Both the position numbers and the translations under genes were made by a program. Under the pieces are notes generated by a model. It saw only the letters and a list, made by a program, of their open reading frames with translations. It did no database searches and had not been told where the DNA came from. DNA of 63,982 nucleotides, counting the filler, from Collodictyon triciliatum (lineage: Eukaryota): assembly GCA_043381765.1 (NCBI GenBank). It is 5 parts of 5 records of this genome, joined end to end, with 100 filler letters (N's around TTAATTAATTAA, not from the genome) between each part and the next. Parts side by side here need not be neighbours in the genome. Positions count along the whole stretch, not along the records: positions 1 to 13,425 come from JBHJMP010001988.1; 4 more parts are not named here. One strand, given 5' to 3'. The first letter of the stretch is position 1; every line of letters begins with the position of its first letter. Positions 5,115 through 58,439 of the stretch are shown here, in pieces.

Positions 5115-5879
5115 GCATGATTACAGCGCCCAGTATTATTGCTCTGATTCATTCATCCGTTTTTTCTCTTTCTTTTTTATCTTCTGCCTTTTCTTTCTCT
5201 TCGGTCTCATCCAGCCTGTAAACGGATAAAATTCATTACAAAGGTTGTGACGAACTTGGTTTTATCCTTTTCAAGGTACAACACTTTTCATACAACGAAA
5301 GTGTACCCATATAAAGCATTCAATCGCACAGCCAACCACCGAATTAAATCTGGATTGAGAAAAGCAGGAGCTTTGGTGAATCTTAGAAACAACCTAAATA
5401 ATGTAATAGTATAATTAGTGTGTAATAAGTTTAAAAATACTTTATAATCTCATTCTATTCCTAAGATAAATTCATATTTTATTTTCCATTTATCTGTAAA
5501 TATCATTAAAATTCATAAAATTACAGACAACCCCTTGTCTTGGCCCAGACAGAACCCACCCTATAAACCTGCCACTAAACATACATTTCAAAAAAGCATA
5601 CTATCCACACTTGCGGCGATAATCATGTTGTTTGGAGCCGATATCTTGACTTTCAGTCGCAATGGCCGTATGGCCGTCCTTTCGAACTCGCCGAATCGGC
5701 TCTCAGCGTTTTGTCTCAAATCACTTATAAAAATTTTTTTTGTATGTTTGTTTGCCACAATGCGCACATTTTGAGAGTCTCGGTAGATGTTTAATTTTAC
5801 ATAATTGATTTTGTGCAGTTGTTTTTTTTTTTTTATTCGATGGACTGAAGTTTTATTAAAATTGAAAATTCGGTGGTTT

Positions 5880-7818
5880 TCTAAAGGAAAAAGTAAAACA
5901 AAGACTTTCAGACGAAGAAAAGAAAACGTCTTGAGTCTGAGAATATAAATTCTGTAGAACCACATTATCGAAACATGAAAAACATCTCAAAGTTGATTGT
6001 AAAGAATGCGGATGACTATGACAAAACCAACGATACGGTTTTACTGTGTCATAATTTGGTTACCGACACTTATCTGTTTGCAAGATGTTACATATTGAAA
6101 TCACAACAACTCCCAACAATCGATGAAATGTTTTTTTCGTACGCTTTAAAGACAGTTGGAATAGATCCACAAGATAGACACGCAAGATTAAAAAAAAACT
6201 ACCAGATATAAGTAAAGACATGATGACTTTTTATCTCTATGATTTCCGATTCCTTTTGTCCCGAGAAGAACGCTTTCCGTTGGTTTGACGGTCTCATGTA
6301 TTACCGTACTTGGAGATGCAAATGTTAACAGCTTATCATAATAACACTAAGGAGCATTTTGTAAAGAGGTTACTGCGCTTTATAAACCGAACAGTGACTA
6401 AATATGAGAATGTTACGGAAGCTATTCAAAAGGCAAAGTTACGAAAGTTAAAAAAGCCATCTTCAAGAATATCGAAATATCGGAACAATATAAAGAATGG
6501 GCTAGAATCGCATTTGCATCGTATCATTCCCAGCGATGTTGTAAAAGGTATCGAATATGACGTCAAAGTTAATCCAAGTAAGTACATTCCATGTCTGATT
6601 TACATGAATCGCATTTTTGAGGACATTGGAACCAAACTGTATCAACCAATCTCTATAAGAAATAACAATATACCGCGTCATGTTACTCAAGATACTGCAT
6701 GTTTGATATATCTATTAGTATTAACTGGAAAACATTATTACTGAAGAATATATCAGGATGCAAAGATACCCTATGGGATAACTTCTTTGAAATGAAGAAG
6801 ATGGTCTTTCGTCAAAGAGACTACAATTTTAAATACACGATACAAACAGACGGCTTGGCGGTGTCATTATTGTTTGAAAAGAAAGGTATTTCAAATTCAA
6901 AATTCAAAATTCAAAATTCAAAATTCAAAATTCAAAATACCAATATTATCAAAAAAAAACCTAGAAAATGTTTATATAGATGAGCTTTCTGAAGAGCAGT
7001 TATATTTATTAGCGACAAAAAAATTAGTTTGGGTGGACGCAGGTAAGCCTAATTTGGTTTACATGGTGGACGAGACAGGTAAGAAATTACGTTGCACAGC
7101 GCACCAAAGAAAACATGATAGCGAATCTCTTTAAAGTCACAAAATACTTTTGCGCGAGAAAGAAAGAAAAGTACAATGCTTTCAGGGATATATATGGCAA
7201 CAGATTTACAAAGTGCTATTTCTTTTGGTCACATGACTTTTGAAGAGAATCAGCAGTTTGAGGCATCAAGAGTATCTTCAATCGATTTAGAGATAGAACT
7301 GAGTAAATATAATTCACGCACAGTCGATTATGAAAAAAATTCGAGAATATGTATCTATGAAATCAAGATATCAGATAGAACTTTCCAGATTTTATAAACA
7401 AGTAACTTTTCGAAAGAATGGGATGGAGACAGTAAGTTCATACAAAAAGAAGTGAACAGTTGTTTATGGGCCGAATCGAAAAGACATTTGGCAAGGATGT
7501 TGTACTGACGTGTGGAGACTGGAGTAGAAAATTTCCGATGAAACATTCTAAGCCAACCATCGGAAGAGGGTTACGAAGAATACTATCCAAATGCTTTGAA
7601 ACAGTTAGTGTAGATGAATTTAGAACCTCCACGGTGTATTGTAACTGCGAAAAAGAAACTGGGATATATGAGACTGAAAGGAAACTCAAAAAAAAGTGTA
7701 TAGATGCCTCGTATTTAAAAAATGCAATCGCTTAGAAGGCAAACAAAGTGTATTCTTGGCAAGGGACAATAACAGCGCTTATAATATACTCAACAAAGTT
7801 CCTTTAATCCTTCAATAA
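5880..7818 (+). pseudogene. Fanzor (TnpB-derived RNA-guided endonuclease, Fanzor1-like), frameshifted
   Basis: Consecutive + strand fragments give an N-terminal ...TDTYLFARCYIL...LPTIDEMF, then TAYHNNTKEHFVKRLLRFIN, TIQTDGLAVSLLF, RuvC-I WVDAG (D at 7036), GDWS...PTIGRGLRRILSK, RuvC-II VDEFRTS (E at 7616), a CNC...KKC zinc-finger region, and RuvC-III LARDNNSAYNIL (D at 7765). Confidence 0.88.
6890..6937 (+). repeat. (TTCAAAA)n heptamer expansion inside the Fanzor ORF
   Basis: Direct reading, about 6-7 units. Confidence 0.9.
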
Positions 7819-7842
7819 TGCATACACCTTCCTCTAAAAAAT

Positions 7843-7983
7843 AGGCTGTTGGGTCTTTCTTGGCAGCCTTCACCACTACACAATGTTTGTGAAAAAAAGT
7901 GGTGAGACCTTGGGTACTAACGCACCAGGTTTATCAATCGAAAGATGGTATACCCCCTTCTAGTAGTAGGATAAAATATATGG
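7843..7983 (+). ncRNA. Candidate Fanzor omegaRNA scaffold plus flanking guide
   Basis: Tandem hairpins directly after the Fanzor stop: AGGCTG 7843-48/CAGCCT 7864-69; TCACCACT 7870-77/AGTGGTGA 7898-7905; ACCT 7907-10/AGGT 7927-30; TATCAATC-GAAA-GATGGTA 7932-50. Then CTAG at 7960-63. Confidence 0.55.
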
Positions 7984-8329
7984 AGATTCATGAATAAGGT
8001 GAAGGAGGTGAAGGAAGAGACCAATCAAAAGTGCAGGAATCCAGCGCACACAAACAGCTTGCAACGCAACAAAAAACAAAGGCAAACCAGGATTCCTGCG
8101 TAAACATACCAAAATTAAAAAAATTAAATCTTGAAGCCTGCATCGATTCAAACTGTCGATTTTGGAATTCTGAATCACATTCCCGTGCTCATCCGCCGTC
8201 CTCCCTTCCAACGCGCTCCTTTCCAGAAGAACAGAGACAGGCCTTATTCCGAATTATGTTCTTTTTTCTTCTACTTAACAAGGGCACACTCTTTTGCAAA
8301 TTATCGATTTGATATACTCGTTTCACACA

Positions 8330-46750: not shown

Positions 46751-47870
46751 TTATAGTGGAGAGCAAACGCGAGTAGGAGAAGAAACTACTATGAAGACTA
46801 GCACTAGAAAGAAATCAGTGATAGCGAGCTGGTCAGGTGAACGTCCCAACTGGTTGATTGGTTGCATGGGTAGCAGGGGTTGGATATGCTGTGGGAGATA
46901 TCTTACGACACATTCCCACATCTCTCTTTGCTTGCGGTCAGAGTAGCGAAGAATGCGAGCGTGTTTCAGCAGGCTGTTCAGGAAGCTGTATTTCACGAGG
47001 CTTTCCAGCCTGGATATATTGATTTCTCGTTCGGGTGAATCATTAGAGCGAGAGAATGCACGCACACTCCACAAGGGCCACAGCATATGTCCCCTTGTGA
47101 CTGTCCAGAGTATTCTAGAGTCGTGGGTCATTTGGTATTGTGGGCCAAACAGGATATCTGACACGCTGAGACGGTTGGGAGCATAATCAAGCTCATAGAG
47201 CATCTTGTGAGTAGATTCTGTCACTTTTTGAGCAAGGGAGCACTTCACAAATGTGTGTTCGATAGAGTCATCTCCGCTATGGCACATGGTGCATTCTGGA
47301 GAGGTCGTTGCTGCATGGACTACGCGCGCACCTATCCACAGCTCTCTGTTGGAGATATCGAGAAGTTGGGCGCGGTGTTTCGGGAGTAGCTGAGGTATAC
47401 GGGCTTGCTTCCAACTTTTGACTATCGGCGGGTCTACAATGCCTATAGTTTCGGTTCATCGACCCCATCCGAAGCATGGTAGCGGATTGGCTTGAAAAGC
47501 ACTTTGTTAATGGGTCTGCTTGTATCTGACAAGATTTGGGACTATCCTCGTTCTTCCCTTAAAAAGGATTCGGTCTCCACATTTGTAACCCAACCGTCGC
47601 GTCTGTTTCGTGCAAAGAGAAATGGATCCGATCGGTATGCTTCGAGAATCACAGCGACGCGCCGGGTGGCTCGGGCAAAGAGTATTCACACACAAGCCGG
47701 ATGGCTCATATGCAGCCCACGATATCCTTGAAGCGCCAAGAACGCCGCCCCTAAACTTGTTCTGCAATCTGACATAGTGCGTTGATAAAAACATACCGTC
47801 AAGTAGCATGGCCACCAATCAGTCGTCCGAGTTTTGGCGGGAGTGTTTACGCAAGGAACTGTCCATTACA
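46751..47870 (-). mobile_element. 5'-truncated, degenerate non-LTR retrotransposon (L1/Tx1-like ORF2 C-terminus)
   Basis: CTMCHSGDDSIEHTFVKCSLAQKV (zf-RVT Cx2Cx7Hx4C) followed by ...MLWPLWSVR... Upstream frames are broken by stops and frameshifts. Confidence 0.6.
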
Positions 47871-55908: not shown

Positions 55909-58063
55909 TCAAATATCCGGGGCATCTGGATTGACCACGGGCCGGTCGCCCAGAAGCGAGACCGCGCCGCCAGGATTGAGATAAAAGAAAGGATAGTACG
56001 GGCCAAGGTCGGATATGCTGCTTGGAAGAGGCTGCTTCACAATCTGGCCGTTGCGCTGGTTCACAATCATCAGCTGGAAGGCTTCCAAGTCCACGGTGAC
56101 GGTCAGGACATCTCCCGTATCGAAGCGGGCCGAGGGACAGCCGGACCATGATGTGGAGTTTGAGTAGAGCGTCCCGAGTGAGTGCCAAGAGTATGAGGCA
56201 AACAGGCTGTACCCGTTCTTGCCTTTGCATGTCTTCTGAATCACGCCCACTGCAATGCCGCCAAAGCCCCGGTTGTTGATGCGGACAGAGTATGCGTGCA
56301 GACCGCTCCAGAAGCCTTCTGTCCCAAGGACAAAGCCGTCTGCGTGACCCTCTACAGAGGCCAGTTGCATGTTCTGTGTGAGGGCGATAGTCTTTGCACA
56401 CTCCGAGATATCAAAAGACCACGAGCGTGGAGGGAAGTCTGTCAGGTCAAGAGATAGAACCGCCGGCGAGGGTGGAGGCGGGGGAGATTGAGAGGCTGGA
56501 TTGGGTTGCGACAGCTTTGCGTTGCTTGAGCCCTGTGAGGTTGTGGGGAGCGCTGCATCAGAGGACTTCCAAGAGCGTGCATCGCGGTCCGACATGGGCA
56601 AGGTGCTGTGTGTCTCTTTGTGATGAAGTACTTGCAGAAGCGAGGATATGGATTGGTCGATGGACTCAGCGACCTTGTGGAGACGTGTTTGGAAGTGTTG
56701 TACAGTCTTGTCTTCATCCGGCTCTGTTCGTGTGGTATGATGTGCGTCGATGATCTTTTGCGACTCCTTGTCGATTCCGTCCATCAGGAGCGTCAGGTGA
56801 GTGTTCATCAAGAGAAACTGGGGGTCGCTGGTGTGCTCCATGATGCCTTCTAGGGCAGTCAGGCTGCCTTGAAAGAACGATAGCTTCTCGGATACCTGTG
56901 TCTCGTCTGCCTGCCAGCCCCGCATATTGGTCCTCATTTCTCGAGAAATCTGCTCGCGCAATCCACGTCGGCGATCTTCCAGTGTCTGCATCAGCGTGCC
57001 GATACATCGGTCCAGCGCCTCCAACATCCTTGTTTCCTTGCGTTCACAAACCTGCGATTGCTCTCGTGCGTGTGCGCTGATGGAGGAGATGGGCTCAATC
57101 AACATCCTACACATGCAAATGTTGACTAAACAAAACAAAACAAAACAAAACAAAAAAGGATAATAATAACTATAATAATAAACAAAACAAAAAAAACTGA
57201 TGAGAAAAACAAATGCGTGTTTCTTCAACATCTATTTTAACACAACACAACACAATAGATAATAATATTTCTCATAGTACTTTTTTTTCTTACAATCATC
57301 ACCGATGAGTATTCACCAATAGATAGGAGGAGACAAATAGCAGACACGCCACCAAAATAGAAAAATCATTATTGACAGACCTTGTCTGTTGAATCCGATT
57401 GCTTAGCTGACTCCTTTGACTCAAAGCAGCATCAATGACTGGAACTGAGCCGTGCTGGTGCTGCTCAAGCGCACAAAACGTGCACACAAGCACACGACAC
57501 GACTGAGCCGGGCAGTAATACTTGAGCCTCTTGCCATGTGCCCTGCAGCGTAGAACGTCGCGTCGATCAGGTACGGTGCTATGCTGGATACTTTGTGCTG
57601 CAAGACTCGCGGCAGAAGAAGGCACCAGAGAAGAAACTGCGCCGCTGATTGTAAAGAAGGAGGACTGGTGCGACGCAATGGGGACCGGGACAGAGACAGG
57701 ACTCGTCTGAGTCGCAGACTGGGCCGGCAAATCAACTGCATGGTAAGGCGCCGAAAGGGCCGAAAGGGCGAGGTAGACGGGTTGATTGACGGGCAGCGCG
57801 CGCATGTCTGACTCAGCAAAGAGGCGCAAGGAATGCAGACAGAGCGGGCATTCGCGCTTGAGGGCAGGCATTTTGAGCAGGCAGGCCAGGCAGCAGATGT
57901 GAGCGCAAGGCAGAAACTTTGGGACGCGCTCGTGGATGTCAAAGGCTGCTTGGCACACGGGGCAGATGTATGGGCTCGGGAGATGGCTGATGGAGTCCTT
58001 GCGTGGGAGCGAGGCTTCTGAGGAGGATTCGCTGGGCGTGGCGGTGGTGCTTGTGCTCTGCAT
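55909..58063 (-). CDS. TRIM-like RING/B-box/coiled-coil/SPRY(B30.2) protein (exons 58063-57381, 57106-55909)
   Basis: RING CPVC...PKFLPCAHICCLAC...CPLC; B-box CRAHGKRLKYYC...CRVLVCTFCALEQH; coiled coil; SPRY-like VLGTEGFWSGLHAYSVRI...IAVGV...GDVLTVTVDLE...YYPFF. Confidence 0.88.
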
Positions 58064-58439
58064 TGATCTCTGTCGCCTATCACCTGGTTGTTGTCGGTCT
58101 AGTGGCACTTGTCAGCTTCTACTTCCACTTTTTTTTTTTGTTTTTTCTGCATTTTTTGATTTGTTTTTTTTGCATTTTTTGATTTATTTTGATCCTCGTG
58201 AGTTTGATTTGTTGGGATTCGAATTCAATGAAGTCGAGCGTCCCCAAAAATATTCGTGCGTCTAAAAATTTTCATTCATTGTCTACTTCTGGAAATCAAA
58301 TGCGGGATTCATCTTTTCACATCAAATGGACGCTCGTTCAACAATTTTTTTTACAAGTTTGTTGTCATTTTTTTTTATTTACTTTAGTCTCTTAACCTAA
58401 TTGTAACGTACTGCGGCATACCAACACCTAACCCCAACC

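Follow-up and report, generated by a model that had tools for sequence, protein, structure and literature searches.

Fanzor1 is an RNA-guided DNA cutter carried by jumping genes. A locus related to this family is found in the eukaryote Collodictyon triciliatum, on a stretch of 63,982 nucleotides (nt) taken from the assembly GCA_043381765.1 and referred to here as the window, and the present work deals with the state of this Fanzor1 locus, with a cluster of hairpins situated at its 3' side and with its possible origin. Coordinates are given throughout along the whole 64-kb window.

Among the described systems, the SPu-1 element of Spizellomyces punctatus is reported to have terminal inverted repeats (TIRs) of 30-33 nt with putative TA duplications (Bao and Jurka 2013, PMC3627910; Saito et al. 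2023, PMC10432273). Its copies are given in these reports as 42 loci, 19 of which are full length, and as 17 full-length copies, 9 of which have intact open reading frames (ORFs). The RNA of its nuclease SpuFz1 is described as a 75-nt scaffold that includes the right inverted repeat, together with a guide of 14-15 nt, located after the stop codon (PMC10432273). According to the same report, the RNA of GtFz1 from Guillardia theta overlaps the last 17 codons of the ORF. In parallel, another report describes Fanzor RNAs, termed omegaRNAs, as overlapping the right TIR (PMC10530073). Three Fanzor1 (Fz1) RNAs have been solved and are reported to have in common a first stem loop of seven base pairs, the remainder being variable, with four stem loops in GtFz1 (SL1 and SL2-SL4), two in SpuFz1 and two in PpFz1 (Xu et al. 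2024, PMC11423790).

In all likelihood, the sequence at 5924-7818 on the plus strand is a dead Fanzor1 gene, present as a single copy within the window, and the fossil of an SPu-1-like, Fanzor1-only DNA transposon lying between cellular genes. As a fossil it is unremarkable, its element being of a kind already known. Such a transposon would have landed between cellular genes in a eukaryotic genome, with neutral decay thereafter. While the element was alive, it would have encoded an RNA-guided endonuclease of the TnpB type, in which a zinc finger accompanied a split RuvC domain (D-E-D). This protein would have carried an omegaRNA transcribed from the element's 3' end, and the final ~14-15 nt of that RNA, taken from flanking DNA, would have been its guide. 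This scheme is modelled on SpuFz1 and its relatives. By position, the omegaRNA would have been encoded at ~7800-8000, where the hairpins at 7843-7950 may be a remnant of its scaffold.

Homology and decay of the Fanzor1 gene

The region 5924-7815 of the plus strand is collinear with intact Fanzor1 proteins of 590-680 amino acids (aa), as observed with both a family hidden Markov model (HMM) and tblastn. The model, which was made from 123 relatives and comprises 661 nodes, was searched against the translated frames of the window and yielded pieces in three forward frames that follow each other in collinear order over nodes 9-588, with E-values of 8.2e-13, 5.8e-64, 4.1e-16, 4.2e-4, 1.3e-38 and 1.9e-10. 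In the same way, tblastn of 150 relatives against the window gave 296 high-scoring segment pairs, none of which (0/296) was outside 5500-8200, and no second Fanzor copy was found within the window. Related proteins are labelled P000n in the following, and loci from IMG/VR L0nn.

Solved Fanzor1 structures were matched in the PDB by two of six frame fragments taken singly. Fragment 7436-7735 matched the Fanzor1 of Parasitella, PpFz1 (E 8.6e-9), and the three top matches of fragment 6289-6744 were GtFz1 (5.7e-8), SpuFz1 (3.3e-4) and PpFz1 (1.2e-3); no Fanzor match was obtained in the PDB with fragments 6796-7134, 6666-6983, 7122-7397 and 7678-7818. The locus is assigned to Fanzor1 because the Fanzor chains matched were all Fanzor1, from Parasitella, Guillardia and Spizellomyces, and no chain named Fanzor2 was among the matches. 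The initial annotation, which had proposed a decayed Fanzor copy and recommended HMM and structure searches, is thus borne out and made more specific by the family HMM, tblastn and PDB matches.

A search of the six frame fragments against Pfam returned no TnpB or Fanzor family, all matches being far below the cut-off, and a word-based protein search with fragment 7436-7735 gave 28 candidates, none of which scored. With HMMER, the same fragment found 662 proteins at E<=1e-3, 48 of them at E<=1e-10, with a top identity of 59%, and many of these relatives are 590-750 aa in length. Of the full-length relatives, P0006 (634 aa) is the best, and its alignment with SpuFz1 covers residues 14-607 (E 9.2e-37). 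PF07282, the Cas12f1-like TNB domain, is matched by intact relatives including P0006, weakly and below the cut-off (E 0.002-0.009). One metagenomic relative, the 378-aa Fanzor1 fragment P0004, bears in its source the name "6-pyruvoyl-tetrahydropterin synthase", which is probably a mis-annotation since P0004 aligns with the Fanzor1 family.

Across 17 aligned relatives, T318, D319, D372, E530, D581, C537, C540 and C564 were invariant, N148 was nearly invariant and C567 was present in at least 90%. The motifs of the window coincide with the columns T318, D319, D372, E530, D581 and N148 of the relatives. In RuvC-I (WVDAG, frame 1) the D codon occupies 7036-7038 and aligns with D372, in RuvC-II (VDEFRTS, frame 2) the E codon occupies 7616-7618 and aligns with E530, and in RuvC-III (RDNNSAYNI, frame 1) the D codon occupies 7765-7767 and aligns with D581. 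The catalytic D, E and D codons are therefore kept, spread over three different frame segments. YTIQTDG belongs to frame 3 and LTAYHNNTKEHF to frame 1, so that all the motifs previously pointed out (the three RuvC motifs, TDG and the YxNNxxxHF type) are present at the places described. The locus 5924-7818 is a decayed Fanzor1, and by the family HMM and tblastn the match is far beyond chance. Its segments and the features found around it are as follows.

5924-6199 (+): Fanzor1 N-terminal segment; frame 2, HMM nodes 9-97
6202-6738 (+): segment with the LTAYHNNTKEHF motif; frame 1, HMM nodes to about 275, internal TGA at 6286
6741-6890 (+): segment with YTIQTDG; frame 3, HMM nodes about 277-345
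6890-6937 (no strand): (TTCAAAA)n microsatellite of ~7 units in the variable linker of the pseudogene, as read from the sequence
6964-7167 (+): RuvC-I segment (WVDAG); frame 1, HMM nodes 352-411, internal TAA at 7132
7272-7339 (+): segment LSKYNSRTVDYEK; frame 3, HMM nodes 415-437
7340-7684 (+): RuvC-II segment and first zinc-finger pair (YCNC); frame 2, HMM nodes 437-553
7687-7818 (+): second zinc-finger pair (CLVF..C) and RuvC-III; frame 1, HMM nodes 548-588, ending with TAA 7816-7818
7843-7950 (+): four hairpins predicted by folding, whose position makes them a candidate for what is left of the omegaRNA scaffold
7964-7983 (+): guide start as proposed by the initial annotation

The aligned segments contain six internal stops, at 6286 (TGA), 7132 (TAA) and, all four within 7340-7684, at 7358 (TGA), 7376 (TAG), 7403 (TAA) and 7433 (TAA), that is two TGA, one TAG and three TAA, to which six frame changes are added. 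No start codon could be identified upstream of the N-terminal segment. The zinc finger reads YCNC and CLVF..C versus the CxxC...CxxC of relatives; the region that had been described as kept is hence present, but two of its four cysteines are replaced. After the RuvC-III Asp, only 16 residues precede TAA 7816-7818, versus a median of 44 in 126 relatives (5th-95th percentile 27-66), which places the tail ~28 codons below the family median, and the C-terminal tail of the family (HMM nodes 589-661) was not detected in the window by the family HMM. In a FastTree phylogeny, the branch of the pseudogene is long, with 1.09 substitutions per site. Read in this way, the Fanzor1 gene is dead and would be unable to make a nuclease, and the stop at 7816-7818 is real but, by comparison with the relatives, premature.

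Four of the six frame changes occur at A runs of 7-9 nt (6190-6198, 6951-6959, 7333-7339 and 7688-7695). The first, an A9 run, leads into the segment 6202-6738, and the second, also an A9 run, follows the microsatellite 6890-6937. These four frame changes could be assembly errors, which counts against decay, and together with the retention of all three catalytic residues they are what favours the alternative that the gene is alive, its breaks being homopolymer errors, introns or recoding, and that a working Fanzor1 is encoded. Without the four A-run breaks, six stops and two frame changes still remain, and the stops lie inside well-aligned conserved segments. Introns at the breaks were considered and rejected because the alignment to relatives continues through every break with no residues lost. 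In the same way, a changed genetic code provides no explanation, since all three kinds of stop codon occur in frame. Moreover, two zinc ligands and the start codon are missing, and the tail is shortened. Elsewhere in the window, frames running from stop to stop reach as much as 1148 aa and include 8 A/T runs of at least 7 nt, which is weak evidence that the assembly handles such runs. A living gene is therefore scarcely credible, and decay of a Fanzor1 gene is retained as the explanation.

The hairpin cluster and the 3' RNA of viral relatives

Four hairpins (7843-7869, 7870-7905, 7906-7931 and 7932-7950) make up the minimum-free-energy fold of 7819-7983, so that the cluster noticed by the initial annotation is indeed there. 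This fold has an energy of -43.8 kcal/mol (z -2.06) and 7 of 200 shuffles were as stable. When 1938 windows of 130 nt, taken from both strands of the 64-kb sequence, were folded, the 130-nt window over the hairpins reached -37.3 kcal/mol, a value attained by 1.9-2.4% of GC-matched windows, and the minus strand over the hairpins was equally stable (-33.1 to -38.5 kcal/mol). The hairpin cluster is real in the predicted fold and is moderately, not strongly, unusual. There is no sign in it that would favour an RNA over a DNA feature.

The cluster had been said to start 25 nt after the stop. This is literally true but misleading, as the stop is premature: the tail lengths of 126 relatives would put the ancestral stop at ~7849-7963 (median 7900), and for this reason the hairpins probably overlie the former coding tail. 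The right end of the element is expected at ~7910-8050, given a distance of 60-90 nt from stop to end in relatives. Position 7963, which had been put forward as the boundary before the guide, falls within this range, but nothing singles it out, and a guide start at 7964 is plausible from its position alone.

The DNA ends of the family can be studied in its relatives from IMG/VR. A scan with the 17-protein alignment gave 499 pattern matches, of which 464 were confirmed, and 78 loci (L001-L078) were kept. Many of their contigs are named as giant-virus metagenome-assembled genomes (MAGs), for 76 of the 78 loci the plus-strand ORF of greatest length has 565-654 aa, and identity to the window copy is 33-38% over the aligned parts. 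Copies in different contexts have in common DNA from ~430-470 nt 5' of the ORF to ~60-90 nt past the stop. TIRs of ~30 nt or more, beginning with TACACC and ending with GGTGTA, were found in 51 of 65 loci, and the complete Fanzor1-only elements are 2.36-2.44 kb long (for instance L014:2557-4935). In 62 of 69 loci, the left TIR is separated from the Fanzor ORF by a small basic plus-strand ORF of at least 70 aa, for example at L010:1776-2066 and L014:2629-2934. These elements are of the known SPu-1 / PUl-4 type, described as Fanzor1 only with TA-flanked TIRs (PMC3627910).

Alignment of 58 of their 3' ends showed that similarity drops sharply after GGTGTAA and that six helices extend from ~60 nt before the stop to a sharp right end ~82 nt after it. 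The third helix contains the stop codon, and in the fifth and sixth the right TIR is paired to upstream sequence. With RNAalifold on a MAFFT alignment only the outer helix was recovered; the others were drawn by eye and then counted, so that the counts lean towards the drawn structure, but the slid controls are far lower: 88.6% of cells are paired versus 43-50% when the partners are slid by 1-3 columns. Compensatory changes were observed in 22 of 32 helix pairs and none of 500 shuffles reached the observed values. The IMG/VR elements thus carry a structured 3' RNA supported by covariation. These 58 natural variants of one Fanzor1 3' RNA are a by-product that may be more useful than the fossil.

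Two covariance models were made from this viral RNA, R1 for the whole (145 positions, 32 pairs) and R2 for the first two helices (54 positions). Several results weigh against a conserved omegaRNA and an intact 3' end at the window copy. R1 and R2 had no match at E<=10 in 7800-7970, their best matches elsewhere in the window being at E 0.4 and 0.16, respectively. A search by nhmmer with the viral 5' and 3' flanks recovered only the coding part 7732-7793 (E 0.66). No TIR was detected around the copy when 5200-5950 was compared to 7790-8150, with a Smith-Waterman score of 21, a shuffle mean of 21.4 and 106 of 200 shuffles equal, and the element's 3' end may for this reason be truncated or eroded. 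As to folding, there is no strand asymmetry that would indicate an RNA, and ~2% of GC-matched windows fold as well as the cluster. In parallel, the list of inverted repeats for the window contained only low-complexity pairs as TIR candidates, the viral end motif GGTGTA does not occur downstream of the pseudogene ORF, and scans of the window for Rfam families (gathering thresholds) and tRNAs gave nothing.

By eye, TTCACCAC...GTGGTGAGACC resembled the viral GTCTTTCACC-stem-AGACC core; this candidate was rejected, R1 and R2 having no match there. Two further pairings were noted in this region. A 10-bp inverted repeat, GCAGGAATCC / GGATTCCTGC, lies at 8033-8042 / 8091-8100, just 3' of the proposed guide, and a 21-nt pair that is 76% complementary links the first hairpins (7854-7874) with 7998-8018.

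The hairpins could then be unrelated to any omegaRNA, either flanking or other unrelated DNA that folds by chance, for example after loss of the 3' end, or a degraded coding tail, and this has close to an even chance of being the case. The modest z, the equal stability of both strands, the frequency of equally stable windows, the silence of R1 and R2, the lack of a TIR, the undetectable tail nodes and the expectation of an ancestral stop inside the cluster are all in its favour. Nevertheless, the hairpins are at the position expected for Fanzor1 omegaRNAs from the published accounts (PMC10432273, PMC10530073) and from the viral family, and the first helices of the viral family are also inside the coding tail, so that overlap with a former tail is expected. 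The failed model matches are themselves weak evidence because protein identity is ~35% and Fz1 scaffolds are variable, the solved omegaRNAs being reported to differ widely outside the first stem loop (PMC11423790). That the hairpins are the remains of an omegaRNA scaffold is plausible by position only and can be proposed by analogy as a tentative reading, somewhat less probable than their having no relation to one. The candidate omegaRNA of the initial annotation is not supported beyond position and a z of about -2, with no match of R1 or R2.

Surroundings and origin

Seven of the ten long frames tested match a Pfam family. Six of these are cellular, namely a Ras-family GTPase, QueG, a microbial-type PARG, a large leucine-rich repeat protein and a RING/B-box and SPRY pair; the genes flanking the fossil are those of a eukaryotic cell. 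A zf-RVT retroelement remnant at 46751-47455 (-), E 9.5e-7, accounts for the seventh. No viral hallmark family was matched among the 10 ORFs tested. The fossil itself lies within AT-rich and microsatellite-rich intergenic DNA.

Some other features of the window were noted. The zf-RVT frame is probably what is left of a non-long-terminal-repeat (non-LTR) retrotransposon and is unrelated to the Fanzor fossil. The RING and B-box frame (57299-58111) is adjacent to the SPRY frame (55909-57231) in a TRIM-like arrangement at 55909-58111 (-). Long microsatellites and N runs interrupt the window in several places. Upstream of the pseudogene, 5520-5720 is a repeat-free patch of higher G+C that had no Rfam match and no likeness to viral 5' regions; this patch could be the old 5' part of the element.

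The closest proteins are P0001 and P0002, from short metagenomic contigs, with 53-57% identity to the window copy. The YCNC change is common to all three, and an extra stretch after RuvC-I is common to the window and P0002, the poorly alignable 7168-7271 corresponding to the place of this stretch in P0002, the closest fragment. The own sublineage of the window was not found in IMG/VR (139 pattern matches, none confirmed), a protein fragment gave 160 pattern matches and no confirmed one in JGI metagenomes, and a 20-nt stretch of the hairpin region had no match in these metagenomes. A sequencing-run search gave small word shares of 0.05-0.10 in 6 runs, none of which is listed as RNA.

The spread of Fanzors via viruses has already been proposed (PMC3627910, PMC10432273), and the fossil could have come through a giant virus, either as an integrated viral segment or as a virus-borne element that jumped into the host. 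Relatives are encoded by 464 of the 499 IMG/VR pattern matches, with many giant-virus MAGs among the contigs, and Atlas clusters around P0006 are 92-100% Viruses, most commonly Nucleocytoviricota. In a FastTree phylogeny of 130 sequences, for which the broken gene was read through with X at each break, the window copy is inside a clade of 95 (support 0.966) with all 66 IMG/VR loci. Nevertheless, the immediate join of the window copy to the viral clade has a support of only 0.38. The direction of transfer cannot be read from this tree because it is unrooted, resemblance to the window decided which members were included, and the metagenomic proteins carry no record of their origin. The Pfam-matched neighbours are cellular and devoid of viral hallmarks, the sublineage formed with P0001 and P0002 is not found in IMG/VR, and the viral TIRs, flanks and small upstream ORF are not detectable at the window copy; for the latter, a search with 56 proteins gave no better E than 0.23 anywhere in the window. 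A passage through a giant virus is accordingly rather unlikely, and insertion of an SPu-1-like transposon between cellular genes is preferred.

A more specific reading holds that the window copy, P0001 and P0002 form a distinct cellular Fanzor1 sublineage, with a four-stem-loop omegaRNA at 7843-7950 overlapping the ORF tail and with intact partners elsewhere in the genome that are able to use RNAs in trans. This combination is improbable, slightly more so than the viral route. A single fossil without partner copies contributes no mechanism and its use is that of a pointer. If the genome holds intact copies of the sublineage, these would provide a further Fanzor1/omegaRNA pair beside SpuFz1, GtFz1 and PpFz1.

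Comparison with known Fanzor and TnpB systems

SPu-1 resembles the locus in being a single-ORF Fanzor1, of ~630 aa, with the same domain order and with D-E-D and CxxC..CxxC, and P0006, the intact relative of the window copy, aligns end to end with SpuFz1. Degraded and partial copies alongside intact ones are reported for SPu-1, so that decayed Fanzor1 copies beside intact ones are already described for the founding family (PMC3627910, PMC10432273). In contrast to SPu-1, the window copy has no detectable TIR, its ORF is broken and its 3' RNA is a candidate; its fragment 6289-6744 reaches only E 3.3e-4 with SpuFz1.

The IMG/VR elements hold the nearest intact proteins with retrievable DNA and are collinear with the window copy throughout, but their TIRs, small upstream ORF and covarying 3' RNA are all undetectable in the window. 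The layout of this viral 3' RNA agrees with that of published Fanzor1 omegaRNAs as reported, with scaffold and guide after the stop, overlap with the TIR and overlap with the ORF.

The reported omegaRNA of GtFz1 from Guillardia theta has four stem loops, as compared to four predicted hairpins in the window, where overlap with the ORF tail is probable as well, and GtFz1 is also the best match of the N-terminal fragment 6289-6744. The likeness is one of number and position only, the stems of the window being ~8-10 bp versus the seven-bp SL1 described for all three solved Fz1 RNAs.

Finally, TnpB of IS200/IS605 and its omegaRNA are more remote, since the locus belongs to the eukaryotic Fanzor1 lineage with a larger N-terminal part and none of the six window fragments reaches a TnpB-type Pfam family. 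Yet both have in common a RuvC-plus-TNB core and the logic of a guide RNA derived from the right end of the element.

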